From Kofleriaceae bacterium (GTDB taxonomy: Bacteria; Myxococcota_A; Polyangia; Haliangiales; Haliangiaceae), in NCBI GenBank assembly GCA_015075455.1, contig JABTUH010000016.1, forward strand, positions 192,001 to 215,686: DNA of 23,686 nucleotides, in the 5' to 3' direction. Shown here piece after piece: positions 982 through 23,686 of this stretch (its first letter is position 1; the number at the start of each line of letters is the position of its first letter). Position numbers and translations under genes: made by a program. The notes under the pieces were generated by a model. The model was not told the origin of the DNA and made no database searches. It saw only the letters and a program-made list of their open reading frames with translations.

Positions 982-1057
982 CACTGCAACGACTGCAGAT
1001 CACACGCGCCGATGACCGGCACGCGCTGTGCTTCTTCCGCGGCGCGAGCGTGAAGCC

Positions 1058-2929: not shown

Positions 2930-2953
2930 TCGGAGCGACCGAATGCCCGTTCG
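2919..2953. promoter_or_regulatory. Candidate TetR operator: 15-bp inverted repeat 'cgaacgagcattcgg-agcga-ccgaatgcccgttcg'
   Basis: Half-sites are reverse complements with 1 mismatch in 15, separated by 5 bp. Lies between/overlapping the divergent tetR start and the OMP start, with an RBS-like GGAG at 2932-2935. Confidence 0.5.
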
Positions 2954-4316: not shown

Positions 4317-5653
4317 ACCGTCCCGCCCGCCTCGCCCTCTGTGCGCTCCTCCTCGCCCCGGCGCTGGGCTGCGGCGACGGCAAGGCTGGCGGAAAGCCAC
4401 CGGCGCGCCGCGAGGTCAAGTTCCCGGTGGAGGTCCGCCCGGTCGAGCTGCGCGCCGTCGAGTACGGCGTCAACGCTCTGGGGACCATCGACGTGTTCGA
4501 GCGGGTCCAGGTCACCGCGCGGGTCGCCGGCGTCGTCGACGCGGTCAAGTTCACCGAGGGCGACGTCGTGACGCGGAACCAGGTCCTGGTCGCGATCGAT
4601 CCGGCGCGCTTCGCCCTCGCCGAGCGCCAGGCCCGAGCCGCCGTCGATCGCGCGCGCATCGCCGTCACCGACGCCGAGGCCGGCCTCGCCCGCCGCGAGT
4701 CGGCGGACCGCAGCAACCCCGGCCTCATCCCCGGCGAGGAGCTCGAGACCTGGCGCAACCGGGTGGCCGCGGCCAAGGCCGACCTCGCCGAGCGCGCCGT
4801 CGCCCGCGATCGGGCAGCCCTCGACCTCAAGGACGCCTACGTCCGCGCCCCCATCGCCGGCGAGATCGAGTCGCGCCAGGTCGCGACCGGCGCCTACGTC
4901 CAGCCCGGCACCGTGCTGGCCACGATGGTCCGCCGCGAGCCGCTGCGCCTGCGCTTCGACGTGCCCGAGGCCGAGGCCGCGCCGATGGCCAAGGGCGGGC
5001 TCGCCCGCTTCACGATCACCGGTCACGACCACGTCTTCACCGCCACGATCGTGCATGTGGCGGCCGCCGCCGAACCGACCTCGCGCATGGTCCGCGTCAC
5101 CGCCGAGATCGATGACCCCGACCGCGCCCGCCTGCGCGCCGGCGGGTTCGCCCAGGTCGTCGTTCCGGTGGGCGGCACCGCCCAGGCCCCGGTCATCCCC
5201 GAGACCGCGATCCGCCCCAGCGAGCGGGGCTTCCTCGCCTTCGTGGTCGAGGGCGAGGTCGCCCGCGAGCGCATCCTCGAGCTCGGCCTGCGCACCGCCG
5301 ACGGCCTGGTCGAGGTCCGCCGCGGCCTCGCCTCCGGCGAGCAGCTCGTCGTCCGCGGCGCCGAGGCGCTGCGCGAAGGCGCGCCGATCCGCCTCGGCGT
5401 CAAGCCGGGTCAGGGCGGCCCCGGCGGCCCAGGCGGCCCCGGCGGCCCTGGCGGCCGCGGCGGCAACGGCGGCCCCGGCGACAAGGGCGGCCCCGGCGGC
5501 AAGGGGCGGCGACACGCCGGGCCCGCCCGCGGCCGCGCCCGCCCCCACCGCGCCGGCGCCGGACGCCGACGCGCCCTCCCGACTCGCCGTCCCCGGGCCG
5601 CGCCCGCCGGCGCCGCACCCGCCCCCGCCGCGCCGCCCGGGGGGCCGCGGTGA
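4313..5653 (+). CDS. Efflux RND transporter periplasmic adaptor (membrane-fusion protein), probable lipoprotein, with Gly/Pro-rich C-terminal tail
   Basis: GTG at 4313 overlapping the upstream stop (GTGA). 'LALCALLLAPALGCGDGK' is a lipoprotein-type signal. Biotin-lipoyl/HlyD-like core 'VQVTARVAGVVDAVKFTEGDVVTRNQVLVAIDPARF...' is present. Tail 'GQGGPGGPGGPGGPGGRGGNGGPGDKGGPGGKG...' runs to the stop at 5651-5653. Confidence 0.8.
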   Translation: MNRPARLALCALLLAPALGCGDGKAGGKPPARREVKFPVEVRPVELRAVEYGVNALGTIDVFERVQVTARVAGVVDAVKFTEGDVVTRNQVLVAIDPARFALAERQARAAVDRARIAVTDAEAGLARRESADRSNPGLIPGEELETWRNRVAAAKADLAERAVARDRAALDLKDAYVRAPIAGEIESRQVATGAYVQPGTVLATMVRREPLRLRFDVPEAEAAPMAKGGLARFTITGHDHVFTATIVHVAAAAEPTSRMVRVTAEIDDPDRARLRAGGFAQVVVPVGGTAQAPVIPETAIRPSERGFLAFVVEGEVARERILELGLRTADGLVEVRRGLASGEQLVVRGAEALREGAPIRLGVKPGQGGPGGPGGPGGPGGRGGNGGPGDKGGPGGKGRRHAGPARGRARPHRAGAGRRRALPTRRPRAAPAGAAPAPAAPPGGPR

Positions 5654-8600: not shown

Positions 8601-8712
8601 CGGCGGCCTGGCGGTGTCGACCGCGCTCAGCCTGTTCGTGGTCCCCGCCTTCTACGTCGTCGCCGACGCCGTGCGCCGCCGCCTCGGCCTGGGCGGCTCG
8701 GCCGCGCCCTGA
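5650..8712 (+). CDS. RND efflux permease, AcrB/HAE1-like inner-membrane pump (1020 aa)
   Basis: Canonical N-terminus 'MNITEICIRRPVFAWMIMLATVLFGVVAIG' (GTG start overlapping the MFP stop as GTGA). Length ~1020 aa. Two large periplasmic loops plus 12-TM pattern, e.g. 'VVDDAIMVMENIYRH' (AcrB Asp407/408 equivalent). Confidence 0.9.
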   Translation: MNITEICIRRPVFAWMIMLATVLFGVVAIGRVGVSQYPDVDFPTISVGVTWEGAAPDVMEAEVIEVIEEAVMQVEGVRAVNSSARQGQASVTIELDIDRPVDLALQDVQTRVAQAQRRLPVDMDPPTISKTNPEDQPIMWVGLSGPYSRALLTDTAKYEIKERLQTLPGVGEVTLGGFLERNVRIWLDAAALARHKLTPADVQAALQREHVERPAGRIDARGREITVRVLGEAFDLATLRDIIITRIDGAPIRLGAVAVVEDGFEDERRIARSLGFPVQGIGIRKQRGANAVAVAQAVRAELVKINDRLPEGMVAAVNFDSARFIEDTVRHIEIELIMAVLLTALVCWMFLGSLSSTLNVILAIPMSLLGTIAAIYFLGFTLNTFTLLALSLAVGIVVDDAIMVMENIYRHAEMGKPAAQAAREGTREITFAALAATIAVVAIFVPVVFIEGVTGKYFMQFGVTLSIAVLLSYVEAITLAPARCAQFLRAGRHDRMWLGQQVDRGFATLARGYRWLLTRALRWSWVVLLAAATSIVGLVHGVQSLPKEMVPAQDQSRLMVRMFTEVGTSLEETDQVFRQAEEFINAQPEVRRTMAIVGGFGGGNVSQVIVMTSLVPRSERQVSQAEFATRLRRNLSGIAGLRVVVQDLSQSGFTANRGFPVEVSVRGPDWPTLVDEALRLRDALAESGMVMDVDTDYELGMPELRLLPQRDRAADLGISVDDIATAVNTMIGGVRAGKYSSGGRRVDVRLKVRRDQRASPDALGQLYLRARTGEMIPLSTLVELEERPALQSITRRDRERAITITANVAPGYSQQDALTKVRELSKTLPPGYKAVLGGASASFLESFAGLGFAFLLGVAVAYMVLGSQFNSFLHPVTVLTILPLSLVGAVFALLYSGQTLNIFSMIGLLLLAGIVKKNSIILVEYANNARDRGLDARAAMIEAGPTRLRPILMTSIATMTAAVPAALGLGEGSETRTPMAIAVIGGLAVSTALSLFVVPAFYVVADAVRRRLGLGGSAAP

Positions 8713-8754
8713 CGCCGGCGCGCGCGTCGTGGCGTGCCGGCGCGCCGCGCGCGA

Positions 8755-9138
8755 TCAGCCGGCCGTGGCCGCGATCAGCGCCAGCACCCGCGCCCGCAGC
8801 GCCTGCGGCGCCCACGGCTTGGCGATGACCTCGTCGACGACACCGGCGGCCTGGGCCGCGACCAGGGTCGGCTCGTCGTCGAAGCCGGTCACGACCACGA
8901 CCCGCAGCCGGGGCCAGCGCGCGCGCGCGGCCCGGGCCAGCTCGACCCCGGTCGGCCGCCCCAGGGCCAGGTCGCTGACCAGGGCGTCGGCCGGCCAGCG
9001 CTCGAGCACCGCCAGGGCCTCGGTGGCGTCGGCGGCGGCCACCACCTCGGCGGCGCGGGCGAAGGTCCGCACCATCAGGTCGCGGTTGTACAGCTCGTCG
9101 TCGACGACCAGGATGCGCGGCGGCGGACCGTCAGCCAC
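8755..9138 (-). CDS. Single-domain response regulator (CheY-like receiver)
   Basis: 'RILVVDDE' acidic pocket, '[12 protein letters not shown]' phospho-acceptor Asp, 'VVVVTG' Thr, 'AKPW' Lys. No output domain. GTG start overlaps the histidine-kinase stop by 8 nt. Confidence 0.8.
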
Positions 9139-10501
9139 CGCCGACCTCGTCGCCGAGGCCCGCTGCCCGTGATCCTGGCGCGACCGCGAGCGGCGCCGGG
9201 GCCTCGACCCGCGGCCGCTCCGCCGCGCCGTCGCTCGGGCCGCGCACCGGGATCGTGACCACGAACTCGGCGCCAGCGCCGGCGCGGTTGGCCCAGCGCA
9301 AGGAGCCGCCGTGGGCGCGCACGATGTTGGCGCAGATCCACAGCCCGAGGCCGGTGCCCTCGCCGACCTCCTTGGTGGTGAAGAACGGATCCGAGATCTT
9401 CTCCATCAGGTCGGGCTTGATGCCGGGCCCCGAGTCACAGATGGTGACGCGGATCGCCGCCCCGTCGTCGACGGTCTCGATCGCGACGTCGATCCACCCG
9501 GTGCCGGCGATGGCCTGGGCGGCGTTGGTCAGGATGTTCATGAACACCTGGTTGACGTGGCCGGCGTTGCACAGCACCCGCGGCACGCCGGGCGCGATCC
9601 GGCGCCGGACCTCGACCCGGTTCTTGAGCAGGGGCCCGATCAGGTTGAGCGTGGTGTCGATGCCGCCGACGATGTCGGTCTCGGCCAGCTCGTTACCCCC
9701 GGTGCGCGCGAAGCTCTTGAGATCGGCGACGATGTCGGCGGTGCGCTCGGCGCCGGCCCGGATCGACCGCAGGAGCTTGCGCCAGTCGGCGACCAGGAAG
9801 TCGAGCTCGACCTCGGCCTTGAGCGCGTCGAGCGCGGCCCGCAGCTCGGGCGGCAGCGCCGCGCCATCGACCAGCGCCACCAGCCGCAGCAGGTCCTCCA
9901 TGTACTGGCCGAGGAAGTCGACGTTGCCGTAGACGAAGTTGATCGGGTTGTTGAGCTCGTGGGCGATGCCGGCCACCAGCCGGCCCAGCGACGACATCTT
10001 CTCCTGGTGGACGAGCTGGGCCTGGGCCGCGCGCAGCTCGTCGGTGCGCTCCCGCACCTTCTCCTCGAGGTCGCCCTTGGCCCGCCGCTCGTGCTCGAGC
10101 GCGACCTTGAGCCGGCGCTGGATGCGGACGTCGGCGGTGACGTCGCGGTAGGTCTCGACCACCACCGCCTCGCCGTCGTCGAGCTCGACCGGGGCCGCGG
10201 TCACGATGAAGGTGAGGTCCTCGCCGTCGCCGCGGCGGGCGCCGATCTCGTCGACCCGAAGCCGCCGCCCGACCTCGCGCACCTTGCAGCCCAGGCACGC
10301 CTGCTCGCAGATCTCGAGCTTGAACAGCTCGTGGCAGCGGGCCCCGGCCTTGACCTTCTCGGCGAGCTGGCGCCCGCGCAGGCCGGTCAGCGCCTCGTAG
10401 GCCTGGTTGTAGTGGAGCACCCGACGCTCGGCGTCGAGGACGACGGCGGCGTCGACGCTGCCATCGAGGAGCTGGGTGATCTGGTGGAACAGCTTGGCCA
10501 A
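9131..10501 (-). CDS. Sensor histidine kinase: N-terminal PAS-like domain with 4-Cys motif, coiled coil, HisKA, HATPase_c
   Basis: H-box '[19 protein letters not shown]', N-box '[17 protein letters not shown]', G1 'DSGPGI', G2 'GTGLGLWI'. N-terminal '[19 protein letters not shown]' (C-x8-C-x3-C-x2-C). TTG start at 10499-10501. Confidence 0.85.
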
Positions 10502-10550: not shown

Positions 10551-11048
10551 TCAGGCCTCCGCCAGGAACGACAGGTAGCGCTCGGGCAGGTCGTCGAACT
10601 CCATGGTCGCGCCGCACTGCGAGCAGGCGAACTGCGGGATCTCGTGCTTGCCGCCGGTCTGCGTGACGTCGACCAGCTTCTCCTCCTCCTGGCCGCAGCG
10701 GTCGCACACGTAGGGCGCGAAGAAGGAGCGGATGCGAGCGTTGCCGCGGAAGTTGTAGATCATGTTGAGCTGGGTCACGATCGCCGGCGAGCAGTGCGAG
10801 AACGACAGCTCGGTGACGTGGGGCAGATCGCGGACGAAGTTGACCCACTCGCGCACGCCGCAGCTGTTGATGCGGCGGACCTCGCCGAGCTGGAACGCCA
10901 CGGCGCCGCGCAGCCGCCGCCGCAGCTCGACGAAGTCGGCGTTCTCGTCGATCTCCCCCACGAACTCGACGGTGGTCAGGCCGGGGCGTTCGCGGATGCG
11001 CCACGACAGCGCGACCGGCTCGGGCCCCCGCACGTCCGCCGTCGCCAT
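10551..11048 (-). CDS. STAS-domain (anti-sigma-factor-antagonist-like) protein fused to C-terminal C4 zinc ribbon
   Basis: '[18 protein letters not shown]...[23 protein letters not shown]...SPAIVTQL' aligns by eye to SpoIIAA ('IRLTGELD...IVLNLEDLSFMDSSGLGVILG...SPAVKRL'), including the phospho-Ser position. C-terminal 'CDRCGQ-x24-CSQCG' zinc ribbon. ATG at 11046-11048, 4 nt after the upstream gene stop. Confidence 0.75.
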
Positions 11049-11052
11049 CGCC

Positions 11053-11976
11053 TCACTCCATCCGCTCGGGCGACTTCTCGAAGTGCTGGCGGACCTCGGT
11101 CCGCGCCGCCTCGTCGAGCGACGCCGGCTCGATCAGCACGTCCTTGACGTCGAAGCGCACCGGCTCGGGGCTGGCGAAGACGCCGCGCTTGACGACGCGG
11201 CCCATGCGCCCGGCGAGGCCCTGGTAGGCGGCCTTCGACGGCGAGGCCCAGCCCGAGATCGCGCCGCCGCCGCCGAAGCGGGTCACCGCGGTCCCGACCG
11301 AGGCGACCGTCGCCGCCGGCACCTTGGCGTTGACCTGGACGAAGGCGGGGTTGGGCACCGCGCCGGTGTCGAACAGCTTGGCCAGGCCCTTCTGCGAGCC
11401 GATGGGCGCGAACACCGCCTGCGCGCCCTTGTACGACGCGACCTCGGCGACCGCGGCCGTCAGGTCGGGCTTGCCGACCCGGCTGGCGAAGAAGCCGGCG
11501 TCGACCTCGGACTCGAGCATGGCGTTGTCGACGAAGCCGTTGTCGTTGCAGCCGGTCTGCACGAACGCCAGCTTCTTGCCCTCGAGCGCCTTCATGTCGC
11601 CGCCGGCGCCCGAGAACAGGGCGTAGGTGCGGGCGCCGCTGCCGCCGATCTGGGCGTTGGCCAGCAGGTTCCAGCCCAGGTTGGTGGCGTAGCACTGGGC
11701 GTCGACGATCGCGAAGTCGACGCCGGCGCTCTTGAGGGCGCCGAACGAGGCGAACGACTTGGCCTCGGTCTTGACCCCGGTCTGGGCCTCGATCGCCTTG
11801 GCCAGGCCCTGGACGTAGGACAGGCGGTCCTGGGCGGTGCCGAACTCGACCGACGGCGCGTAGATGCCGATCACCAGCTTGCCGGGCGCCGGCTGGGTGG
11901 TGCCGGGACGGACCACCAGGGCGACGGCCAGGGCGACCAGGCAGAGCGTCGGGATGATGATGCTGAGCTTGCGCAT
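11053..11976 (-). CDS. Periplasmic solute-binding protein, PhnD/SsuA-like (putative)
   Basis: Signal peptide '[22 protein letters not shown]'. AGGAG 8 nt upstream of ATG. Type-2 SBP-like pattern '[10 protein letters not shown]...[13 protein letters not shown]...[11 protein letters not shown]...VDAGF'. Family assignment is tentative. Confidence 0.55.
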
Positions 11977-11995: not shown

Positions 11996-14647
11996 CTAGT
12001 AGCCGTAGATCCGCTTCTTGGCGTCGATCCACTTCTGGAGATCGCGCGCGCCGGCGACCCGGCCCGACGCCGAGCGCCAGGCCTCGTAGGCGTCCTTGGG
12101 CCGCCCCGCCTGGTCGTAGAGGATGCCGAGGTTGACCAGCGCCTCGGGCGGCTGGCCGCGCAGCGCCTCGAGGGCGCCGATCTTGCTCTTGTCGAGCGAC
12201 AGCACCGCGCGGTTGTTGACCAGGCGACGCTTGGCGTCGTCGCTGGCGAAGCGCTCGGCGCTGTCGAGGGCCTTGGCCGCGGGCCCGGTGCGGCCGTTGC
12301 GCCAGTGGTCGAACGCGACGTACTCCCACGACGACGCGATCAGGTCGCGGACCTTGGTGCTGAAGGCGCCGGTGGCGCTGCCGAGCAGGCGGGTGAAGGT
12401 CGCGGCCGCTCGTTCGCGCAGGGTGGCGTTGTTCGAGCGGTAGTCGGCGTAGGCGCCGAAGAACTCGGTGCCGACCTTGGCGTAGGGCGCCTTGAGGTAC
12501 GCGGCCTGGTTGCCCTTGGCGGCGAGCTGCTTGAAGTACTTGCCGGCCTCGGCGGTGTCGCCCTTCTCGAGCAGGGCCAGGGCGTAGCTGAACTCGAAGG
12601 CCGCTGGCTCGGTGCCCTTGAGCAGCGAGGGCTCGCGGGTCGCGCGCTCCAGGTCGGCCACCGCCTCCGCGTCCTTGCCGGCCTTGATCGCCCGCCAGCC
12701 GCGGCGGAACAGGGCGAGGGCGAGGTTGCGCTTGGCCGCGGGCGCCACCTCCGGCGACTGGGCGGCGAAGCCCACGGCGATGCCGAGCTTCTCGACCGCC
12801 TCGTCGAGCTTGGTGTCGACCAGCAGCGGCGCCCACTCGGTGTAGATCTCGGCCTTCATCAGGTTCGCCTGGTTCTTGGTGGCCTCCTCGTCGGCCTCCG
12901 CGAAGTGCTGGGCGGCCCGCGCCTTGTCGGGCTTCTTCGCGCACAGGTGGGCGCGGCCGGCCAGGCGGTTGTAGAGCATGGAGTAGCCGCGGCGGTTGTC
13001 CTTGATGCGGTCGAGGTAGCGCAGCCCGCCGTCGCAGTCGCCGCGGTCGATGGCCAGGACCGCCAGGTTGAGCGCGACCATCGGCGAGCGGTCGTCGACC
13101 TTGAGCGCCTCCTCGAGGAAGGCGGCCGCGGTCTTGCCGTCACCCTTGGTGAAGGCGCCGGCGGCCTGGGCGTTGATGGTCTCGACGAGCGCGCGCCGGA
13201 TCTGCAGCTCCCTGGGTCGCAGGGCCACCGCGGCCTCGAAGCGCTGGCGCGCCACCACCAGCTTGCCCTGGTTGTACTGGGCCTTGGCGCTGACCAGGTA
13301 GAGCTCGGCGGCGAGCTCGGGCGGCGCGCTGGCGAACGCCTTGCCGGCGATGAGCTGGTCGGCGGTCTTGGCGGCGTCGCCGTCGCGCCGGGCCGCCAGG
13401 TAGGCGCCGCCGAGCTCGATGCCGAGGTCGAAGCTCGACGGGTCGAGCTGGCGGCCGGCCTCGAGCTTCTCGATGGCCAGCGCCAGGTTGGTGTTCTGGG
13501 CGCCGGTCGACGGCATGCGGCGGTAGGTCTTGCCCAGCCGCACGCTGAGCTCGCTGGCGCCCGCGCCGCCGCGCATGAGCTTCTCCGCCTGCAGGTAGGC
13601 CGCCAGGGCCTGGCCCCAGTCGCGCTCCTGGAAGTAGGCGTCGCCGATGAGGATGTAGCCGCGGGGCTCGTTCTTGCGCTTCTTCAGGTACTCGTTGGCG
13701 GCCTGCCGCGCCCGCTGCGGCAGCTTCTTGGCCAGGTACGCCGAGCCGAGGTTGAAGTAGACCGAGCCGTTGCTGTCGATGTTGCGCGGGTTGCCCTGCA
13801 GGCGCTCGCACACGGTGATGGCCTGGTCGAACTTGCGCAGGCCGGTGTAGGCGGCGCACAGTCCGATGTCGGCGTTGGGCTGGGCGTACTGGGCCTTGCC
13901 GTGCTTGCGGACGACGGTCTCGAACTCCTTGACCGCGCGCTCGTAGTCCCGGTTGGCGGCGTCGTGCTGGCTCTCGCGCACCGCCATGCGGCCGCGCGCC
14001 AGGTACGAGAAGCCGAGCCGGATGCGGGGCAGGACGTCGCGGCTCTCGCGATCGGCGGGCCGCGCCGCCAGGTACGCCTCGTAGGCGGTGATCGTCTTCA
14101 GCGGATCGCGGTTGAAGTAGAACTCGCCCAGGATCTGCTGGTTGGAGAACAGCGAGGCCCGCTTGGCCACCGCCTTCTCGGCGACCGCGACCGCGCCCGG
14201 CTTGTCGCCGGTCGCCCACAGGAGCAGCGCCTCCTGCTCGAGGACCTCGGCGGCCTCGGGGTGGGTGCGCTTGGCCACGGTGCGGATGAACTCGAGCCCG
14301 CCCTTGTAGTCGGCCTGGATGATGAAGATCGCCGCCCGCTTGCCGTAGGCCTCGGGCGGGACCTGGGTCGGGGCCGAGCGGATGGCCGAGTCGAAGGCCG
14401 CGGCGGCGCGTCGCCAGTTGGCCTCCTCGAAGTAGCGATCGCCCTCCTTCAGGTCCTCGGCCACGTCGGCGACGGCGGTGCCGGCGGCGAGGAGGACGAG
14501 CACGAGCCCGAGGGCGGCGGCCCAGGTGCGGGCCAGGCCGCGCGTGGCGCAGGACGTTCGCGTTGGTTCGTTCACGGGTTCCTCGTTCACGGGTTCCTCC
14601 ACGGGGGCCGTCGCGGCCCGGGCCTGCCAGCGCTCAGCGTTGCGCAC
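11996..14647 (-). CDS. Large TPR-repeat protein (883 aa) with N-terminal signal/anchor
   Basis: Hydrophobic 'WAAALGLVLVLLAAGTAVA' followed by many ~34-aa TPR-like units ('AAAAFDSAIRSAP', 'AVAEKAVAKRASLF', 'GDAYFQERDWGQALAAYLQA', etc.). Sits in the operon between the PP2C and SBP genes. Start at 14647 is preceded by a 15-bp tandem repeat in the coding region. Confidence 0.75.
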   Translation of the reverse strand: MRNAERWQARAATAPVEEPVNEEPVNEPTRTSCATRGLARTWAAALGLVLVLLAAGTAVADVAEDLKEGDRYFEEANWRRAAAAFDSAIRSAPTQVPPEAYGKRAAIFIIQADYKGGLEFIRTVAKRTHPEAAEVLEQEALLLWATGDKPGAVAVAEKAVAKRASLFSNQQILGEFYFNRDPLKTITAYEAYLAARPADRESRDVLPRIRLGFSYLARGRMAVRESQHDAANRDYERAVKEFETVVRKHGKAQYAQPNADIGLCAAYTGLRKFDQAITVCERLQGNPRNIDSNGSVYFNLGSAYLAKKLPQRARQAANEYLKKRKNEPRGYILIGDAYFQERDWGQALAAYLQAEKLMRGGAGASELSVRLGKTYRRMPSTGAQNTNLALAIEKLEAGRQLDPSSFDLGIELGGAYLAARRDGDAAKTADQLIAGKAFASAPPELAAELYLVSAKAQYNQGKLVVARQRFEAAVALRPRELQIRRALVETINAQAAGAFTKGDGKTAAAFLEEALKVDDRSPMVALNLAVLAIDRGDCDGGLRYLDRIKDNRRGYSMLYNRLAGRAHLCAKKPDKARAAQHFAEADEEATKNQANLMKAEIYTEWAPLLVDTKLDEAVEKLGIAVGFAAQSPEVAPAAKRNLALALFRRGWRAIKAGKDAEAVADLERATREPSLLKGTEPAAFEFSYALALLEKGDTAEAGKYFKQLAAKGNQAAYLKAPYAKVGTEFFGAYADYRSNNATLRERAAATFTRLLGSATGAFSTKVRDLIASSWEYVAFDHWRNGRTGPAAKALDSAERFASDDAKRRLVNNRAVLSLDKSKIGALEALRGQPPEALVNLGILYDQAGRPKDAYEAWRSASGRVAGARDLQKWIDAKKRIYGY
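14568..14600. repeat. Tandem 15-bp repeat 'gttcacgggttcctc' x2 (+1 partial) encoding 'EEPVNEEPVNEP' in the TPR gene 5' end
   Basis: Seen directly in sequence. Confidence 0.8.
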
Positions 14648-14663: not shown

Positions 14664-16352
14664 TCAGAAGACCTTGCCGATGACGAGCGTGATGTCGTCC
14701 TTGCGGATGTTGTCGCCGAAGAAGTTGGCGGCGTCGGTCACGACGGCGTCGCGGATCTCCCCGGCCTCGAGCGCGGCCGCCCGCCGCACCGAGGCCCGGA
14801 AGCGCTTCTCGCCGTACTCCTCGCCGCCGCTCGACTCGCACTCGACGATGCCGTCCGTGTACCAGACCAGGATGTCGCCGGGCATGAGCTCGGTGGTCTT
14901 GACCTCGTACTTCGACTCCTTGAGGTCGCCGAGCCGGTTGCCGCGGATCATCAGCGAGCCGAACTCGCCCTGCCCGCCCTCCGAGGTCCGGTACAGGTAG
15001 GGGAAGTTGTGGCCGGCGTTGGCGTACGTGATCGTGCGCCGGCGGGTGTCGATGACCGAGGCGAAGCAGGTCATCACGAACTTGCGCTTGGCGCTCTGGT
15101 AGATCGCCGAGTTCATGATCTCGAGCAGCTTGGCCGGGTCGACGTTGTCGCCGTTGACGGCGCGGGCGACGTCGCACGCCGCCTTGGCCGCCGCCGTGAT
15201 CATCGCCGACGGCACGCCGTGGCCGGTGACGTCGCCGATCACGACCAGGACCTTGTCGCCGACCATGTCGTGCCACGTCCACCAGTCGCCGCCGCACTGC
15301 GACGCCGGCTGGAAGTAGCCGGCGAAGCGCAGCGTGCCCTTGTCGACCGGATCGTGGGTCGGCACCAGGGTCTCCTGGATCGTCCGCGCCACCTCGAGCT
15401 CCTTCTCCATCGTCGCCTTCTCGGCGGTCTGCTGGAGCAGCACGAGGAGCTGGTCGGCCATGAAGTTGAAGTTCTCGCCGAGCAGGCCGAGCTCGTCGGT
15501 CGACTTGACCTCGACGCGGGCGGCCAGATCACCGCGGGCGATCTGGTCGGCCTTCCACGCCAGGAGCTTGATGGGCTTGGAGATCTGGACGCCCTGGAAG
15601 ATCGCGAGCAGGGTGCCGATGAGCACGAACAGCGCGCCGAAGGCGCCGGTGCGTAGCGCGGCCTTGCGCGCCTCCTCGTCCTTGAGCTTGGCGCTCTCGC
15701 GGGCGAAGGTGTCGACCGGCGACAGGTCGTAGCCGAAGACCACGTAGCCCTGACGGTTCTCGCCCGGGTCGTCGGCCGCGGCGGCGGCCGGGCTCCAGCC
15801 GACCTGCTCGCCCGAGAACACCGGGTAGGCGAACAACAGCAGCTTGCCGTCCTCGCCGGCGGTCCAGTCGAGCGAGACGCTGATCTCGGGCTCGGTCGCG
15901 GCGGCGCGCCGCTTCCACTCCTCCAGCACCTTGGCCCACGACGCGTGCTTGACCCGCTCGCCCTCGACCTCGCCGGCGGCGTCGCAGCGGTCGTCCTTGC
16001 GCCGGCAGTACTTGATGAGGTTCTGGACGCGACCGACGACGTAGACCAGCTTGAGCTCGGCGTCGTGCTTGAGGGTGTCGTCGACGATCTCCTTGATCTC
16101 GACGTCCTGGGTGTTGATGAAGTACGAGCGCAGGCCCTGGCCGAAGAAGATCGTGTTGGTCTCGCCCTTGCTCTCGAGCTGCTTGCGGTACTCGGTGATC
16201 TTGTCCTTGGCCGCGCGATCGTAGGCCTCGCGGATGTTGCACGCGTTCAGCAGACCGAAGCCCACCACCGTGAGGAGGATCAGGAACGTGGTGGTCAAGA
16301 TCATCTTGACCGAGATGCTCAAGCCGCCGCGCTTTGCCATTGGCCATGCCAT
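14664..16352 (-). CDS. Membrane-bound RsbU/SpoIIE-type PP2C serine phosphatase with periplasmic sensor region and HAMP domain
   Basis: TM1 '[18 protein letters not shown]', ~200-aa extracytoplasmic region, TM2 '[17 protein letters not shown]'. HAMP-like '[45 protein letters not shown]'. PP2C motifs '[10 protein letters not shown]', '[15 protein letters not shown]', 'NAGHNFPYL', 'VWYTDGIVE'. Confidence 0.85.
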
Positions 16353-16522
16353 GTTACGGCGTCTGGTCGGAAGGGGTCAACGAAGCGTCCCCGCGACCGG
16401 TCGGTCCATGTCCGGTGTAAAGTTCCACATGCGCCGATGTGGGTGTCCCGCGCGCACCGCCGCGCGCCTCGGCCGTCGGCGCCAGGGGTCGCATTGGCGA
16501 GCGCGCGACGCGCTCTGCTACG

Positions 16523-17089
16523 ATGCCGGGGATGGAGTCCCACCCCGCGCTGACCCAGTTCCTGACCGAGTTCAAGCGCGTGGCCAGCGCCATCGTCGAC
16601 AGCTACTTCATCGTCGACACCGAGCGCCGCATCGTCGACTTCAACCGCGCGTTCTTCGCGATGCTGCCGCGGCAGGTGGCGCGCGGCCTCAAGGGCAAGC
16701 GCTGCTTCGAGGTCATCGAGCTCAACATCTGCCGCAGCGAGTGCATCGCCCAGCAGTGCTGGACCGACAACCGACACGTCCGGCTCGACGAGATCAGCGG
16801 CAAGGTGCTGGGCGAGCCCGACGCCAAGGAGCTGCGCTTCATCCTGTCGGCGGTGCCGATCACCGACGAGAGCGGCCAGCACGTCGGCGCCCTCGAGATC
16901 CAGCGCAACGTCACCGACGAGGCGGTGGTCCAGGTCAAGTACCAGGAGATGCTCGAGAACGAGGCCCGCGAGCGCGAGCGCCTCGCCAACCAGATCCGCG
17001 CCCGCACCAAGGAGCTGCTCGAGACCAACCAGCTCCTGCTCAAGACCCAGAAGGAGCTCCTGTCCTACAAGAAGGGCCTCTCGGCCTGA
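16523..17089 (+). CDS. Stand-alone PAS-like sensor domain with 4-Cys motif plus C-terminal coiled coil; kinase-less paralog of the histidine-kinase N-terminus
   Basis: '[22 protein letters not shown]' (C-x8-C-x3-C-x4-C). Collinear similarity to histidine-kinase residues ~20-190 ('[16 protein letters not shown]' vs '[16 protein letters not shown]', '[10 protein letters not shown]' vs '[10 protein letters not shown]', '[14 protein letters not shown]' vs '[14 protein letters not shown]'). Ends just before where the histidine-kinase H-box would start. Start at ATG 16523 or 16532. Confidence 0.75.
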
Positions 17090-17111: not shown

Positions 17112-18059
17112 CTACTTGCCGCTGAAGAGCAGGAACGCCAGCACGCCGATGGCCGCGAGCAGCACGACCACGAGCACGTAGATCACGGCGCTCGACTTGG
17201 GCTGGGTCAGCGCCGGGCGCTCGGCGGGGACCGGCGTGGAGAAGCTGCCGCTGCCGGGGTTGGTGCCGGGCGAGGTGAAGTTGCCCGGCCGGCTGCCCGG
17301 GTTGGTGCCCTGGAACGAGCCCACCGGGCGCATGCCGGGGTGGGTGGTGGTCGTCACCGGCGTCATCGACGGCCGGCTGCCCGGCTTGGCGGTGATCGAC
17401 GGCGAGCTGCCGCTGGGCCGCGAGATCGACGGCAAGGACGGCACGCTGGGCAACGACGACACCGACGAGCTGTGCAGGCTCGAGGTGCCGGTGCGCGAGC
17501 GGATCTTGGACTTCTCGCCGTTGTCACCGGAGGCGAACTCCTTGATGACGCCGTTGATCTTGTCGGGCTCGGCGATCTTCTTCTGGTTCGACAGGAACGC
17601 GAAGTACGAGTCGGCCATGTCGTCGAAGTCCATGACCAGATCGCACTCGTCGCAGCGACAGGTCGGCGGCTCGTGCGGCCCCGAGCCCATGTCGGCCGCC
17701 TCGACGAGCAGCACCTTCTCCTCGTCGCACTCGGGACAGAAGTACGGGACGTAGAAGCTCTTGACCACGCCCGACCCGGTGAAGTTGTTGACGAGGTTGA
17801 TCTGGGCGACGATCGCCGGCGAGCACTCGACGAGCACCGCGCGGGTCGCCTGGGTCTCGAGCTTGCCGAGCCAGTTGACCCAGTCGCGCACGCCACACGA
17901 GTTGATGCGCTCGATCTCGCCGAGATCGATCACCGCCGTACCCGCCGGGATCTTGTCGGTCAGCGCGGTGAGCTCGTTGTCCTCGTCGATGACACCGCTC
18001 AGCTTGACGTAGCTGACGTCGTCGCGGTGGTGGACCGACGCCTGAAACTTCTGGCTCAT
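17112..18059 (-). CDS. STAS-domain plus C4 zinc-ribbon protein with Ser/Pro/Gly/Thr-rich linker and C-terminal transmembrane anchor
   Basis: Paralog of 10551..11048: '[23 protein letters not shown]...[15 protein letters not shown]...YFCPECDEE...[15 protein letters not shown]'. Then ~110 aa low-complexity ('[29 protein letters not shown]...[20 protein letters not shown]') and '[22 protein letters not shown]' TM. GGAGA 5 nt upstream of ATG 18057-18059. Confidence 0.8.
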
Positions 18060-18197: not shown

Positions 18198-21100
18198 TCA
18201 CGCCTGGTTCGGGGCAGCGGTGAGGTAGTCGCGTAGGCGCTGGTAGTCGTCGGACAGATAGAAGCGCACCAGGTCGGCCCCGCCCAGCACCGCGCCCAGG
18301 GCCACGGTGGCGTCGTGAGACAGGAGCATCTCGCCGGTCAGGCGCGCGATCATCCAGGTGGCGGCGGCGAAGTCGTCGCAGGCGAGGAGCCCGCCGCGCT
18401 TGGCGGCGCCCAGCATGCCGTCGATCCAGGCGTCGCCGTCGACGTCGCGGCCCCAGTTCTGGTGGCGCTCGATGACCTTCTGCGCCCGCTTGGACAGCCC
18501 CTTCACGAACTCGTTGGTCGGCGCCGGCCGCTCGCCCTCGGGCAGCAGCAGCGACTTCATGAAGTTGCCGAGCTCGGATCGCTGGCGACGGCCGAGGTGG
18601 TGGAGGAAGGCGTACCCGCCCCGCAGCGCCTCGAAGGCCCAGCCGAGGAGGAAGCGGCGCGGCCCGTCGCCCTCGCCGACCAGCGACCGGTCGATCACCA
18701 CCAGGCGGCGGGGCGCCGCCACCAGCGCCACCAGGCCGGGCACGCGCTCGCCCACGAAGACCTCGGCCTCGATGGCGTCGAGCCGGGCGATGTCGGCGAC
18801 CGCGACCTTGAGCCCGGGGTCGTCCATGCCCTGTACCGGGATCAGGTTCTCCCCCAGCATCGGCGGCGGGTACAGGCCGCCCAGCTCGGCCGCGGCCGCC
18901 GCCAGCACCTCGCCGAACGGATCGCGCGCCGCCGTCGTCACCAGCAGCCGCATCCGCATCTCGTCGTCGAGCGCCCGCCGCATCGGGTGGTAGGGCAACG
19001 ACGCCCGCACCTTGGCGGCGGCGCCGCGATCGGACTCCTCGGCGAAGCCGAGCTGCTCCATCACCGTCAGCGCCCGCGCCGCCCGCTCCGGCTCGCCGAC
19101 GCGGGTGTAGTACGACGACAGGAGGCGGTAGGCCATCGCGTTGTGGATGTCGCGATCCACGACCTTGCGCAGCTCCGAGATCGCCTTGCCCGGGTCGTCG
19201 ATGGCGTAGATCTCGGCCAGCGCCACACGATCGGGCGGGCTGTCGTCGACGCCCAGGATGCCGCGGTAGGCCTCGATCGCCGCCGGCCGGTCGCCGGACG
19301 CGAGGAGGATGCGGGCCAGGCCGCGCTGCAGCGGCACCGCCGCCGGCGGCCCGCCCTTCTCCATCGCGGCGTGGGCGGCGTCGATGAGCAGGCCCTCGGC
19401 GCCGCGCTGGTCGCCGGCCTCGGCGGCGCGCCGCGCCAGGGCCAGGGCCGGCGGCGCGTAGCCCGGATCGTACTCGCTGGCCCGGCGGTACTGCGAGGTC
19501 GCGCCGCGAGGATCGCCCGAGGTCTCGGTGATGCGCCCGCGGTAGTAGTAGTAGCGGGCCAGGTTCTCGGGCGAGATCGCCGAGCCCGGCGCCGCCGCCA
19601 GCTCGATCACGCGATCGATCGCCGCCCGGGCGTCGGCGTGGCGCCCCAGCAGGTAGTGCTCCTGGGCCAGGCGGTAGTAGGCCTCCTCGTGGATCGGGTC
19701 GATGCGGATGACCTCGCGCAGGACCGAGATCGCGCGGTGGGGCTCCATCTCGCAGTCGGCGTGGATCTCGGCCTGCCGCATGAGCGCGCCGACGCGCACC
19801 GCCTGCGACACGTCGCTGTGGTTCAGGAACTTGACGATGGCGTCGACCGCGTGGCTCCACCGCCGCATGTTGAGGTGGAGCGTGATCATCGCCGACAGCA
19901 CCTCGAAGTCGTCGGGCGCCAGCGCCACCGCCTCGGCGTAGAGCTGCTGGGCCTGATCGAGGTCGCCCTCGCGCTCCTTCATGCCGGCCTGGGCGACGCG
20001 GACCCGGGCCAGGAAGGGCCCGGCGTCGTCGCGCTTCTTGTAGAGCTTGTCGAGCTCGCGGTAGATCGCGTCGAAGTCCCAGGCCTCGGGGTGCTTGCGC
20101 TGCAGGTCGAGCAGGCCGTCGAGGGCCGACAGGTTGTTGGGCTTGATCTCGAGGGCGACGATCAGGCTCTCGGCGGCGCCGCGGGCGTCGCCGGTCATGT
20201 GGGCGACCACGCCGCGCCGGCGATAGAACTCGCTGCGGGTGTTGGGATCGCCCTCGCGCATGGCCTTGACCGCCAGCGCCTGGGCCAGGGGCAGCGCCCG
20301 CTGCCACTCCCCGGCGTCGAAGTAGTGCTCGAACAGGGCCTGGTTGGCGGGCAGGCACTCGGGATCGACGGCGAGCGCGCTCTCGTAGTAGTGCATCGCC
20401 CGGTCGGGCTGGCCGAGGCGCGACTCGTAGATGCGGCCGATCTGGGCGAAGACGCCGGCCCGCTCCTTGTCGTCCTGCCACAGCTTGACCTCGAGCTCGA
20501 GGGTCTGGATGACCCGCGGCCAGTCCTCGCGCCGGCGGTAGAGGTCGCGCAGGCCGTGGACCGCCGGCAGGCACGAGGGCGAGGTCTTGATCGCCGCGTC
20601 GTAGTAGCGGATCGCGTCCTCCTCCTTGCCGAACTTGGCCTCCATCACCGAGCCGCACTTGAAGTAGAGCAGCGCCTTGAGGTTGCGATCGGTGGTGACC
20701 CGGATCTGGCGGCGGGTGACGTCGACGAACTCGGCCCACTGCTCCGTCGACTCGTAGATGCGGCCCAGGGCCTCGAGCGCCTCCTTGTTGGCGGGCGCGA
20801 TCTCGAGGATGCGCTGGTAGTGCTCGACCGCGCGCGACTCGTCGCGCAGGCCCTCCTCGCTGATCTGGGCGATGCGCTTGTGCAGGGTGGTCGCGGCGTC
20901 GCCGGCGGGGGCGGTGGCCAGGCGGTGGCGCAGGACCTCGACCAGCTTGCCCCAGTCGTGGTTGCGCTCGTACCAGCGCTCGAGCGCGTCGAGGGCCTCG
21001 ACGTCGGACGGATCGATGTCGAGGATGTGCTGGTAGAGGCGGGCGGCCTCGCCGAAGTCGCGCATCTTGGCGGCGGCGACCCGGGCGGCGCGGCGCAGCG

Positions 21101-23686
21101 ACTCGAGGCGGCGCTCGTCGTCGCGGGTCAGGCCGGCCCGCTTCTCGTAGACCCCGATGAGCCCGCTCCAGTCGCTCTTCTGCGAGAAGATCGACTCCAG
21201 GAACTTCACGCTGGTGTCGTTCTCGGGATCGATCTCGACGACCTTGACGTAGGACTGGGCCGCGGCGTCGAGCTCCCCCAGGTACTGGAGCTGGACCTGG
21301 CCGCGGCGGGCGTAGAGGTCGCCCAGGCGGTAGGCCCGCGACGCGCCGCTCTCCACCAGGTCGATCGCGCTCTGGTAGAGCTTCATCGCCGACGCCCAGC
21401 GCTCGTGCTTGTAGCAGAGCTTCTCGAGCGAGGTGAAGACCTCGCGGTTGGCGGGGTCGGCGAGGAACGACGCGGTGAAGGCGGCGATCGCGCCGTCGGG
21501 GTCGCCGCGGTTCTGCTTGACCTGGGCGATGCGCCCGTAGAGCTGGGCCCGCTCCAGCTTGTCGATCGTCGAGTCGGCGCGGGCCTCCAGCACCCGCATC
21601 AGATCCTTGTCGCGGCCGAGCCGCTCGTACAGCCGCTCGAGGGCCTCGAGCGCAGGCACGTACTGGGGGCGGCGCTCGAGGATCGACTCGTAGGCGAGCG
21701 CGGCGTCGGCGGGCTTGGCCAGCTTCTCCTCGCGGAGCTGGCCGAGCCGGGTCAGGATCGCGAGCTGGGCGTCGACGTTGCCCGCCGGCGCCGCCGCCAG
21801 CTCGCGCTCGAGCGCGCCGGCCAGGTCGGCCCAGCGCTCGGTGCGCTCGAGCAGCCGGGTCAGGTCGCGGTGGCTGTCGGTGCTGGCGCTGCCCTGGGCC
21901 GCGAGCTGGTGGAAGCGGATCGCGGTCTCGACGTCGCCGAGCTTGTCCTCGGCCATGCGCGCCAGCGACGCCGCCAGCCGCGGCCGCTCGGCGGCCGGGG
22001 TCAGCTCGATCTCGGCCTGCCGGATCTCGGCCAGCTCGGTCCACTCGCCCAGGCGCTCGAGGGCCTCGGCCAGGACCCGCAGGTTGGCCAGGGTCCGCGG
22101 CGCGCGCCGGTAGGCGATCGCCAGCTCGCGCCAGCGATCGTGGCCGCGGGCGACGCGGTCGACCCCGGCCAGGGCGGCGGCGTCGGCGGCGTCGATCGAG
22201 AGCGCGTCGTCGTAGGCGGCGAGCGCCCGCTCGGGGTCGCGCCCGTCCTCGTACAGCTTGCCGGCCTCGAGCTGGATGGCGAGGCGCCGCGACGGCTCGA
22301 CGCCGCGGGTCAGCTCCTGCTCGAGCAGCGCCAGCAGGCGATCGTTGCGGCGGGCCCGGCGGTGGAGCTGCTGCAGGGCGCGCAGCGGCTCGACGGCGCG
22401 ATCGTCGGCGCGCGCGGCGCGCTCGTAGGCGGCCAGGGCCGCGGCGTCGTCGTTGCGCCGGGTCTCCTCGAGCTGGCCGATCTCCAGGTACATCTGGGCC
22501 TGGCGGCGGACGTCCTTGACCAGCTCGGCGACGCGGGCCCGTAGCTCGATCGCCTTGTCCCATTGCCGGCCGTGCTCGCACAGCCGCGCCAGCTCGTAGG
22601 TGACGTCGGGGTCGTCGGGCCGCAGGGTCTGGGCCTGCTCGAGCACGGCGCGGGCGCGCCGGGTGTCGCTGATGTGCTCGGCCAGGATCTTGCCGTGCTC
22701 GCGCAGGAGCACCAGCTTGAGCTCCTCGGAGGTGCACAGCGCGGTGAGATCGGACAGCGTGCTCGACAGCTCGCGCCAGCGCTCGGCCTTGCGGTAGATC
22801 GCGGCCAGCGCGCCCTTGGCCGCGGGATCCTGCGGCGCCTGGCGCGAGGCCTGGAGAAGGAGCTCCTCCGCCTCCAGCGGCCGGGCGCGCGCGAGCTCGA
22901 GGGCGCCGGCGGCGAACAGGAGCGCGGTGGCGGCGCGGCGGTCGCGGGCCGACTGCGCCGCCGCCCGGTAGATCTCGCCGAGCTGGGCGCGGTCGCGCTG
23001 GCGACGGGCGAGGCGCGCGAGGTGGTCGAGCTCGCTCTGGCGCGCCGGACCGGGAGCGCGCTCCGACGACGCGACCTTGAGCAGCTCGAGGGCGCGGGCG
23101 ACGTCGCCCAGCCGGGCCTCGATGACCAGCGCCGCCCGCCGGTTGCCGGCCCGGGCGCCGTCCTTGGCCTGGGCCAGGAGGTGGCCGACCAGGGCCTCGG
23201 GCTCGCCGGCGCGCAGGCGCTCGAGCGTGAGCAGGCCGCTGGCCGTCCGGGCACCGGACGTCGCGAGCTGGGCCAGCTCGCCGGCCATGGCCAGCCCGTG
23301 GGCGTCGGCGATCTCGAGGGCGCGCCAGGCGTGGGCCGCGGACAGGCCGCCGGCGGCCTGCGACTCGGCGAGGCCACGGCGCGCGGTCACGGCGTCGCCC
23401 CAGCGGCTGGCGCGGTGGCCGACCCGGGCCATGGCCAGCCGCGCCAGCACCGGGCCGTAGCCCTCGTCGCCGGCGGCCGAGGCGTAGCCGGAGACCGCGG
23501 CGCCCAGGACGCCGGCGGCGAGCCGGGCGTCGGCGAGGGCGTGGCGGGTGGCGGCCTCCTCGCGGCGGGCCCCGGCGTCGGCCTCGAGCAGCTCGAGGCG
23601 GCGCTCGTGCAGCGCGGCCACGGCCGCGCCGTCGGCGCCCCCGGGCAGGCGCTGGGCGGCGTCGAGGGCGAGGTCGATCGCGCGCA
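18198..23686 (-). CDS. Giant TPR-repeat protein (>1829 aa), N-terminus beyond window edge
   Basis: Frame open from window end to TGA at 18198-18200. Dozens of TPR-like helical pairs ('AIELRARVAELVKDVRRQAQMYLEIGQL', 'ALAAYERAARADDRAVEPLRALQQLH', 'AIRYYDAAIKTSPSCLPAVHGLRDLY', etc.). Acidic/aromatic C-terminal region. Confidence 0.75.
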   Translation of the reverse strand, partial: RAIDLALDAAQRLPGGADGAAVAALHERRLELLEADAGARREEAATRHALADARLAAGVLGAAVSGYASAAGDEGYGPVLARLAMARVGHRASRWGDAVTARRGLAESQAAGGLSAAHAWRALEIADAHGLAMAGELAQLATSGARTASGLLTLERLRAGEPEALVGHLLAQAKDGARAGNRRAALVIEARLGDVARALELLKVASSERAPGPARQSELDHLARLARRQRDRAQLGEIYRAAAQSARDRRAATALLFAAGALELARARPLEAEELLLQASRQAPQDPAAKGALAAIYRKAERWRELSSTLSDLTALCTSEELKLVLLREHGKILAEHISDTRRARAVLEQAQTLRPDDPDVTYELARLCEHGRQWDKAIELRARVAELVKDVRRQAQMYLEIGQLEETRRNDDAAALAAYERAARADDRAVEPLRALQQLHRRARRNDRLLALLEQELTRGVEPSRRLAIQLEAGKLYEDGRDPERALAAYDDALSIDAADAAALAGVDRVARGHDRWRELAIAYRRAPRTLANLRVLAEALERLGEWTELAEIRQAEIELTPAAERPRLAASLARMAEDKLGDVETAIRFHQLAAQGSASTDSHRDLTRLLERTERWADLAGALERELAAAPAGNVDAQLAILTRLGQLREEKLAKPADAALAYESILERRPQYVPALEALERLYERLGRDKDLMRVLEARADSTIDKLERAQLYGRIAQVKQNRGDPDGAIAAFTASFLADPANREVFTSLEKLCYKHERWASAMKLYQSAIDLVESGASRAYRLGDLYARRGQVQLQYLGELDAAAQSYVKVVEIDPENDTSVKFLESIFSQKSDWSGLIGVYEKRAGLTRDDERRLESLRRAARVAAAKMRDFGEAARLYQHILDIDPSDVEALDALERWYERNHDWGKLVEVLRHRLATAPAGDAATTLHKRIAQISEEGLRDESRAVEHYQRILEIAPANKEALEALGRIYESTEQWAEFVDVTRRQIRVTTDRNLKALLYFKCGSVMEAKFGKEEDAIRYYDAAIKTSPSCLPAVHGLRDLYRRREDWPRVIQTLELEVKLWQDDKERAGVFAQIGRIYESRLGQPDRAMHYYESALAVDPECLPANQALFEHYFDAGEWQRALPLAQALAVKAMREGDPNTRSEFYRRRGVVAHMTGDARGAAESLIVALEIKPNNLSALDGLLDLQRKHPEAWDFDAIYRELDKLYKKRDDAGPFLARVRVAQAGMKEREGDLDQAQQLYAEAVALAPDDFEVLSAMITLHLNMRRWSHAVDAIVKFLNHSDVSQAVRVGALMRQAEIHADCEMEPHRAISVLREVIRIDPIHEEAYYRLAQEHYLLGRHADARAAIDRVIELAAAPGSAISPENLARYYYYRGRITETSGDPRGATSQYRRASEYDPGYAPPALALARRAAEAGDQRGAEGLLIDAAHAAMEKGGPPAAVPLQRGLARILLASGDRPAAIEAYRGILGVDDSPPDRVALAEIYAIDDPGKAISELRKVVDRDIHNAMAYRLLSSYYTRVGEPERAARALTVMEQLGFAEESDRGAAAKVRASLPYHPMRRALDDEMRMRLLVTTAARDPFGEVLAAAAAELGGLYPPPMLGENLIPVQGMDDPGLKVAVADIARLDAIEAEVFVGERVPGLVALVAAPRRLVVIDRSLVGEGDGPRRFLLGWAFEALRGGYAFLHHLGRRQRSELGNFMKSLLLPEGERPAPTNEFVKGLSKRAQKVIERHQNWGRDVDGDAWIDGMLGAAKRGGLLACDDFAAATWMIARLTGEMLLSHDATVALGAVLGGADLVRFYLSDDYQRLRDYLTAAPNQA

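Follow-up and report, generated by a model that had tools for sequence, protein, structure and literature searches.

The stretch of DNA analysed here, 23,686 nucleotides of contig JABTUH010000016.1 of a Kofleriaceae bacterium (the window), carries on its minus strand a gene for a membrane-spanning protein phosphatase of the PP2C (RsbU/SpoIIE) type, and the matter addressed is which phosphoprotein this enzyme would act on and which kinase would oppose it. The G+C content of the window is 72 per cent, and the choice among open reading frames was therefore guided by G+C at the third codon position (GC3). At a GC3 of 0.97 the PP2C reading frame is a real gene, and its full-length orthologues share 58–99 per cent identity. 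The gene and its parts are laid out as follows:

14664..16352, minus strand: sensor PP2C gene; longest open reading frame of 562 amino acids (aa), supported by GC3, Pfam and orthologues
16248..16304, minus strand: first transmembrane segment, residues 17–35; Kyte–Doolittle hydropathy in a 19-residue window, score 2.32
15645..16247, minus strand: single periplasmic domain of PDC/Cache fold, residues 36–236 (201 aa); AlphaFold model and Foldseek
15588..15644, minus strand: second transmembrane segment, residues 237–255; hydropathy score 2.16
15447..15587, minus strand: HAMP domain, residues 256–302; PF00672, E = 7.1e-14, 52.3 bits against a cutoff of 25
14673..15410, minus strand: SpoIIE-type (PPM) phosphatase domain, residues 315–560; PF07228, the structure 6k4e and four Asp motifs

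The architecture given in an earlier note on this DNA, in which a transmembrane segment, an extracytoplasmic domain of ∼200 aa, a second transmembrane segment, HAMP and PP2C follow one another, is borne out by Pfam, by hydropathy and by the Cache-fold model. The match to the SpoIIE family PF07228 (E = 2.8e-42, 145.3 bits, gathering cutoff 25) spans residues 366–560 and positions 3–190 of the 192 in the profile, and the HAMP domain, likewise above the gathering score of its family, starts directly after the second transmembrane segment. The model of the periplasmic domain, built with 19 homologues, reaches a predicted local distance difference test score (pLDDT) of 93 and a predicted template-modelling score (pTM) of 0.86. 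It places a PDC fold, with a long N-terminal helix, a PAS-like alpha/beta core and a C-terminal helix leading into the second transmembrane segment, between two transmembrane segments, the arrangement that defines PDC sensors, and Foldseek matches it at probability 1.0 to the PDC/Cache sensors CitA (1p0z), DctB (3by9), WalK, KinD and DcuS. No Pfam Cache family was matched by the sequence of this domain, and its Cache membership is therefore one of fold. No other part of the protein varies as much as this domain, which nevertheless has C116, C123 and W139 near-invariant and W146 invariant; these four residues possibly belong to a disulfide-stabilised ligand pocket.

Related loci were gathered by running the PP2C alignment against a single genome of each species, which returned 163 relatives. 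The loci of the best 80 of these, at 51–89 per cent identity and all from metagenome-assembled genomes (MAGs) of Kofleriaceae, Haliangiales or Polyangia, were compared by placing the window proteins on them with tblastn, and 36 of the loci have full flanks of 10 kb on either side. The phosphatase has a large group of orthologues, among which the cytoplasmic half hardly varies. All of the metal-binding motifs (GGD356, GD374VTGHG, TD500G and DD553, the last comprising D552/D553) are present and do not vary in 14 orthologues, and for this reason the enzyme looks active; it is an inner-membrane sensor phosphatase whose active site is, by its motifs, intact. No second PP2C was found in 92 sequences, that is, 91 related loci and the window, which leaves the studied enzyme as the sole phosphatase available locally. 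This result also rules out a separate PP2C standing beside the RsbW/RsbV pairs of related genomes (described below) as their true phosphatase.

The phosphatase gene is the first of a six-gene operon on the minus strand, followed in order by genes for an exported tetratricopeptide repeat (TPR) protein, a protein resembling solute-binding proteins (SBPs), a STAS protein with a C-terminal Zn ribbon (STAS-ZnR), a PAS histidine kinase and a receiver. The successive spacings are 16, 19, 4 and 49 bp, and the last two genes overlap by 8 bp. On the other side of the phosphatase gene lie a divergent PAS gene, a second STAS-ZnR gene and a giant TPR gene that runs past the window edge. The features surrounding the phosphatase gene are thus:

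16351..16380, minus strand: sigma-70-like promoter match TTGACC-18-TAACAT, in the divergent intergenic region common to the PP2C and PAS genes
11996..14647, minus strand: exported or membrane-anchored TPR protein, 883 aa; TPR Pfam matches, hydrophobic segment at residues 42–60
11053..11976, minus strand: exported SBP-like protein, 307 aa; signal-like segment at residues 4–22, conserved position
10551..11048, minus strand: soluble STAS-ZnR protein, 165 aa; model and Foldseek; candidate phospho-Ser substrate (Ser62)
9131..10501, minus strand: PAS histidine kinase of 456 aa, cytoplasmic (no transmembrane segment); Pfam matches to PAS, HisKA and HATPase_c
8755..9138, minus strand: single-domain response regulator, 127 aa; translation, NCBIfam receiver matches, Response_reg in the MAG gene calls
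16439..17089, plus strand: divergent PAS and coiled-coil protein; PAS Pfam match, 185–188 aa in the MAG gene calls
17112..18059, minus strand: tail-anchored STAS-ZnR paralogue, 315 aa; STAS-ZnR, Ser/Pro-rich linker, C-terminal transmembrane segment at residues 292–310
18198..23686, minus strand: giant TPR protein; TPR Pfam matches, 5' end beyond the window edge, full gene at 3473–9862 of locus L007

That the phosphatase gene heads the operon, as had been claimed, is upheld by the tight co-directional run of genes and by the sigma-70-like match just upstream of it. The match is to the consensus only, yet it is the sole one between positions 8500 and 18300, where 0.2 would be expected from shuffled sequence. 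Together with the alignment of homologues and the MAG gene calls, which agree with it, the promoter match suggests that the true start of the phosphatase is Met5 of the longest reading frame, at position 16340, for a protein of 558 aa.

The two genes that follow encode exported proteins. The 883-aa TPR gene is retained at each orthologous locus whose sequence extends far enough. Its 307-aa neighbour had no sequence match in Pfam, NCBIfam or the PDB; it looks like a solute-binding protein by its signal sequence and by eye. Farther along, the histidine kinase has a canonical H-box (AHELNNP) and clear HisKA (36 bits) and HATPase_c (82 bits) matches, and the receiver gene that overlaps its stop codon encodes a protein in which the DD...D...T...K residues are readable. 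The features that mark a canonical two-component system, namely an H-box, a HATPase_c domain and a receiver with acidic pocket and phospho-Asp, are all found in the pair. Given this normal H-box and the translationally coupled receiver, the kinase and receiver look like an ordinary two-component pair. The divergent PAS protein is present in nearly all loci at 65–94 per cent identity. It is paralogous to the histidine kinase's PAS domain (30–33 per cent identity by tblastn), and both carry a four-Cys motif, RC[FH]E...IC...C...C, which suggests metal, Fe–S or redox sensing. The MAG gene calls put the giant TPR protein at 2,099–2,129 aa; its gene is in every case followed by that of the tail-anchored STAS-ZnR protein.

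The two STAS-ZnR proteins are 39 per cent identical over about 150 residues, and both have the CxxC...CxxC ribbon. The best Foldseek matches to the model of the 165-aa protein (pLDDT 79) are SpoIIAA, 4hyl, which is a Haliangium anti-sigma antagonist, and RsbV. No Pfam STAS match was obtained for either protein at E ≤ 0.01, and the TIGR00377 anti-sigma-antagonist profile matched the 315-aa protein only (E = 0.0018, 18 bits, below the curated cutoff of 53). A STAS fold that nevertheless falls below the cutoffs of both PF01740 and TIGR00377 points to a divergent, unannotated STAS branch. Within it the motif INSCG is invariant, and profile–profile alignment with canonical RsbV-type proteins, weak (E = 0.0018) though in register, sets Ser62 against the phospho-acceptor Ser of DSSG. 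Two genes encoded alongside the phosphatase therefore supply what a partner switch calls for, a STAS-fold protein with Ser at the acceptor position.

The family to which these proteins belong comprises 4,275 clusters at 50 per cent identity, 512 of them at E ≤ 1e-30; for the listed matches the precomputed Pfam column is empty, and most of those with a name are called 'hypothetical protein'. Across Kofleriaceae the orthologues are 70–90 per cent identical. Among five representatives of the family (P0373, P0390, P0309, P0253 and P0264) fusions to Pkinase and FIST, to three FIST modules and to PDZ are found, as are proteins of ∼700–750 aa in which two stretches of STAS accompany long regions lacking annotation.

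Comparison of the related loci separates what is fixed around the phosphatase from what varies. The divergent PAS gene and the PP2C, TPR and SBP-like genes form an invariant core, present in all 80 loci wherever the sequence is long enough. In one class of loci, that of the window, the SBP-like gene is succeeded by the trio of soluble STAS-ZnR, histidine kinase and receiver, and the giant TPR gene with the tail-anchored STAS-ZnR gene makes a second rigid pair at variable distance. At least one STAS-ZnR gene lies within 10 kb in 30 of the 36 full-flank loci. Wherever the short STAS-ZnR gene is present among these (15 loci), it is directly followed by the histidine kinase and receiver genes.

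A canonical RsbW and RsbV pair is found within 10 kb of the phosphatase gene, upstream or downstream, in 24 of the 80 loci (13 of the 36 with full flanks). The 155-aa RsbW matches HATPase_c_2 (PF13581) above its cutoff at E = 2e-20, with RsbW and SpoIIAB as top NCBIfam matches, and the 101-aa RsbV-type STAS protein, with the motif DLIDSSGV, matches PF01740 at E = 2e-16. The pair is always divergent from a gene for a Bac_transf sugar transferase, which is followed by GT4 and Wzz-like genes (e.g. L057:16444–18100 and L021:3–1597). At locus L021 the RsbV and RsbW genes lie within 1.7 kb of the start of the phosphatase gene, with the STAS-ZnR, histidine kinase and receiver genes downstream at the same locus; such coexistence of canonical RsbW with the trio is also seen at L020. 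No sigma factor gene was found in any of the loci, and neither a sugar transferase nor RsbV is encoded in the window, so that a link of this system to exopolysaccharide (EPS) can be drawn from the relatives only.

The earlier note had found no RsbW-type kinase in the cluster, and this stands for the window and for the wider region that could be brought in through contig JAHDXB010000041.1 of MAG GCA_023382815.1 (Kofleriaceae, Myxococcota; HS111 locus tags). That contig is 99.87–99.99 per cent identical to the window and extends the view by ∼4.4 kb rightwards and ∼9 kb leftwards, to ∼37 kb in total. The sole GHKL domain detected by Pfam in the window is that of the PAS histidine kinase, hidden Markov models (HMMs) of canonical RsbW and RsbV gave nothing significant there, and no gene annotated with HATPase_c_2 lies in the MAG flanks. 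The next gene past the giant TPR gene, however, merits attention as a possible kinase:

24764..25699 in window coordinates (L007:2361–3296, minus strand), plus strand: conserved 312-aa gene outside the window, divergent from the giant TPR gene

The distance from the window end to the start of this gene is 1,078 bp. Its product matches HATPase_c_2 at E = 5.3e-4 and 20.4 bits, below the cutoff of 27.4, and the same family is matched below threshold by 10 of 15 orthologues (best E = 1.7e-5), with no other family recurring. In the alignment an N-box-like ELLMNAxYDAP, a G1-like DxxG and a G2-like GAGLGL are invariant, and the N-terminus is receiver-like, with an invariant Asp50 at the phospho-Asp position. 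A GHKL fold is fairly probable on these motifs; that the protein is in fact a STAS kinase is a less secure proposition. Among the fetched loci 21 have the gene, every one of them with the window's arrangement and none of the other class, and where the start of the giant TPR gene could be mapped the 312-aa gene is upstream of it. Its distribution may be set beside that of RsbW. Within 10 kb of the phosphatase gene, the 312-aa gene occurs in 16 of the 80 loci and RsbW in 24, and no locus has both; among those with full flanks, 12 have the 312-aa gene, none has the two together and 11 have neither GHKL candidate. The note had named an RsbW-like gene just outside the window as the finding that would make this a conventional system, and on this point the outcome is mixed, in that a gene with N, G1 and G2 motifs does lie there while its HATPase_c_2 match is sub-threshold.

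Several characterised systems bear on how these parts might work together. The closest in architecture is SiaA of the Pseudomonas aeruginosa SiaABCD system, which likewise has two transmembrane segments, an extracytoplasmic domain, HAMP and a C-terminal PP2C (PMC7647112). It provides the best NCBIfam match of the studied protein (NF038263, E = 4.7e-28, 98.1 bits) and the best PDB match (6k4e, E = 6e-16). A score of 98.1 bits against the NF038263 cutoff of 700 rules out SiaA orthology, the shared architecture notwithstanding. The locus is also without an operon of the siaB/siaC/siaD type; the neighbours here are TPR, SBP-like, STAS-Zn-ribbon, histidine kinase and receiver genes, and the kinase lies outside the operon. 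The SiaA system is itself a partner switch with an output other than a sigma factor and with an unlinked kinase, and HsbA and S. meliloti BgrU/BgrW provide further examples of unlinked kinases or non-sigma outputs (PMC7647112).

The Bacillus systems RsbU/RsbV/RsbW and SpoIIE/SpoIIAA/SpoIIAB share with this locus a PF07228 phosphatase and SpoIIAA/RsbV-like STAS neighbours, and the likeness is greater in the related genomes in which an RsbW-type kinase and an RsbV-type STAS protein adjoin the phosphatase. The differences are nonetheless considerable. The phosphatase here is a membrane sensor with Cache and HAMP domains, not a protein with an RsbT-binding N-domain or a 10-transmembrane SpoIIE; no locus has a sigma factor; the STAS proteins end in a Zn ribbon, one of them is tail-anchored, and they have NSCG rather than DSSG; and the kinase is unlinked or else takes the divergent 312-aa form. 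In Anabaena, the SpoIIE-type phosphatase HenR and unlinked kinases regulate All4160, a STAS–Bac_transf fusion in a polysaccharide pathway, within a module of HenR, All4160 and Alr3423 (bioRxiv 10.64898/2026.04.08.717354). The RsbV/RsbW genes beside Bac_transf in the relatives are the unfused equivalent of All4160, although HenR is a receiver–PP2C protein and the studied phosphatase a Cache–HAMP–PP2C protein. V. fischeri SypE–SypA is another system like the Anabaena one. Among myxobacteria, the group of MXAN_4562, Adeh_0917 and sce8427 similarly combines HAMP with SpoIIE, is conserved and is not linked to a kinase, and is comparable with the studied protein at the level of domains and linkage (PMC2887360). 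The 2010 survey of myxobacterial phosphatases from which this group is known described the linkage of kinase and phosphatase genes as 'extremely low', with few SpoIIE-type genes near kinase genes (PMC2887360).

There is reason to think, if with only a modest degree of confidence, that the studied protein is the input phosphatase, of RsbU/SiaA type, of a partner-switching network whose GHKL kinase is encoded outside the window. A periplasmic cue would be sensed by the Cache domain, either directly or by way of the SBP-like and TPR proteins, and HAMP would pass the signal on and so switch the phosphatase. The enzyme would then dephosphorylate the conserved Ser of cytoplasmic STAS proteins, namely the soluble and the tail-anchored STAS-ZnR proteins here, with canonical RsbV a further candidate in the relatives. 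The opposing kinase would be a protein of the GHKL (RsbW) superfamily, for which the 312-aa protein is the first candidate and a canonical RsbW encoded elsewhere, like those adjoining the phosphatase in relatives, the second. Once dephosphorylated, the STAS proteins would bind their partners. For the soluble STAS-ZnR protein the histidine kinase and receiver are the best guess, because of their strict adjacency, and it most likely acts on them, while in the relatives RsbV most likely acts on the neighbouring EPS priming sugar transferase. The system would thus follow the logic of a conventional partner switch, though its STAS proteins are unusual and an output branch would run through a two-component pair; it would not be a kinase-less novelty. 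For the phylum, a phosphatase gene with no kinase gene beside it is nothing out of the ordinary, and in this instance the window edge accounts for part of the effect.

Some of the results weigh against such a network. As regards the kinase, no HS111-prefixed protein is among the best 120 of 1,346 matches in a search with the canonical RsbW profile. The 312-aa protein, for its part, could not be aligned significantly with the local RsbW by hhalign, whether at full length or with the C-terminal part only, and it gave E ≥ 0.1 with an HMM of 120 canonical RsbW sequences; it has no NCBIfam match, and profile searches of the PDB returned no GHKL chain for it. As regards the substrates, the STAS-ZnR motif is NSCG and not DSSG, and STAS-ZnR genes are absent from the 10-kb flanks of some orthologous loci. 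The short STAS-ZnR gene moreover tracks the histidine kinase and receiver genes more closely than it does the phosphatase gene, and its product may therefore not be a substrate of the phosphatase at all. The two STAS-ZnR proteins had been called the obvious candidates for the substrate; their STAS fold and conserved Ser keep them as candidates, but 'obvious' is too strong a word for proteins that are not invariant neighbours of the phosphatase.

These same observations leave room for another arrangement, possible if on the unlikely side, in which the true substrate and kinase are a canonical RsbV and RsbW encoded elsewhere in the genome beside an EPS priming sugar transferase. The phosphatase would then control exopolysaccharide, and the STAS-ZnR proteins would belong to separate modules, the tail-anchored one with the giant TPR protein and the short one with the histidine kinase and receiver. 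The RsbW and RsbV of relatives clear their Pfam cutoffs, and their genes, together with Bac_transf and a GT4/Wzz cluster, come close to the phosphatase gene in several arrangements in the 24 loci noted above. The separate RsbV and Bac_transf proteins mirror the Anabaena All4160 fusion (bioRxiv 10.64898/2026.04.08.717354). It is also the covariation of the short STAS-ZnR gene with the histidine kinase and receiver genes, and not with the phosphatase gene, that makes this arrangement plausible. On the other hand, neither RsbW nor RsbV is encoded in the ∼37 kb around the phosphatase gene or in any window-like locus that shows the giant TPR gene upstream, and across the full-flank loci STAS-ZnR is the commoner companion of the phosphatase (30 of 36, as against 13 of 36 for RsbV).

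It is, in our estimation, unlikely but worth stating that the ten-gene cluster as a whole (the 312-aa gene, the giant TPR gene, the tail-anchored STAS-ZnR gene, the PAS gene and the six genes of the operon) is an undescribed hybrid of partner switch and two-component system. The 312-aa protein would in that event be a new STAS kinase, possibly controlled by the PAS histidine kinase, the STAS-ZnR proteins would be its substrates, and the phosphatase would add the periplasmic input. If this were true, the 312-aa kinase would take the place that is held by RsbW/RsbV in sister genomes.

A kinase of quite another class, a Hanks-type Ser/Thr kinase encoded elsewhere, might phosphorylate the STAS-ZnR proteins and be opposed by the phosphatase, though this is decidedly improbable. 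Within the STAS-ZnR family, P0373 is a fusion with Pkinase and FIST, and 9 of the 80 related loci contain genes for Hanks kinases. STAS–kinase fusions and weak kinase–phosphatase linkage have both been described in myxobacteria (PMC2887360). The fusion is nevertheless the only one among ten proteins examined, and the SpoIIE subfamily of PP2Cs classically opposes GHKL kinases (PMC2887360). Hanks kinases were ruled out as conserved neighbours, since those in the nine loci are conserved neither in position nor in sequence (31–38 per cent identity, with one near-identical pair).

RsbW-type kinases and the catalytic domains of histidine kinases have a common GHKL fold. On that account the neighbouring PAS histidine kinase might use its ATPase domain to phosphorylate the STAS-ZnR proteins on Ser in place of RsbW, and its gene comes immediately after the STAS-ZnR gene in each of the 15 full-flank loci in which the latter is present. 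There is very little to be said for such a substitution, given the intact HisKA H-box, the translationally coupled canonical receiver and a separate HATPase_c_2-like gene conserved in the same cluster. Canonical RsbW coexists with the STAS-ZnR, histidine kinase and receiver trio in L020 and L021, which argues that the histidine kinase does not substitute for RsbW. The suggestion in the earlier note that the kinase might have been replaced by something novel, such as this protein, is not supported in view of the ordinary two-component pair, of that coexistence and of the 312-aa candidate. It is just as improbable that the phosphatase targets a phosphoprotein outside the STAS group (the PAS protein, the histidine kinase or an unlinked one) or serves mainly as a scaffold, with the STAS neighbours a coincidence, for although its only invariant neighbours are the PAS, TPR and SBP-like genes and no STAS gene, its catalytic residues are invariant, a single full-flank locus of the 36 (L034, by tblastn) has neither STAS-ZnR nor RsbW/RsbV within 10 kb and, to our knowledge, the characterised SpoIIE-family enzymes among the matches (SiaA, RssB, SpoIIE and Rv1364c) all act on STAS-like substrates.

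The left third of the window holds genes of a different character. A TetR regulator on the minus strand and a divergent plus-strand operon for an outer membrane factor, a membrane-fusion protein and an AcrB-type RND efflux pump occupy positions 2189–8712; as this arrangement is confined to the closest relatives, it is unrelated to the conserved signalling cluster. A Y1_Tnp-like gene of the IS200/REP type (1028–1954, plus strand) lies in a patch of lower G+C content (0.67, as against about 0.72–0.78). In the distant locus L010 a weak Y1_Tnp gene likewise comes after the operon, and the end of the cluster, where such genes lie, may be a hotspot of rearrangement.

For the input phosphatase of a partner-switching network favoured here, it is the context that is noteworthy, the phosphatase itself being an ordinary member of a well-known class. 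The unusual parts are the Zn-ribbon STAS family, its tail-anchored paralogue, the 312-aa protein with its receiver-like and GHKL-like portions, and the coupling to a two-component pair, on none of which literature was found; for a myxobacterial partner switch or the MXAN_4562 group, the 2010 phosphatome survey was the only source found (PMC2887360). If these parts do cooperate, a Ser-phosphorylation switch and a two-component system would be wired into one envelope-sensing circuit, which in relatives lies beside an EPS pathway, in a lineage of abundant, uncultured myxobacteria of soil and wastewater.

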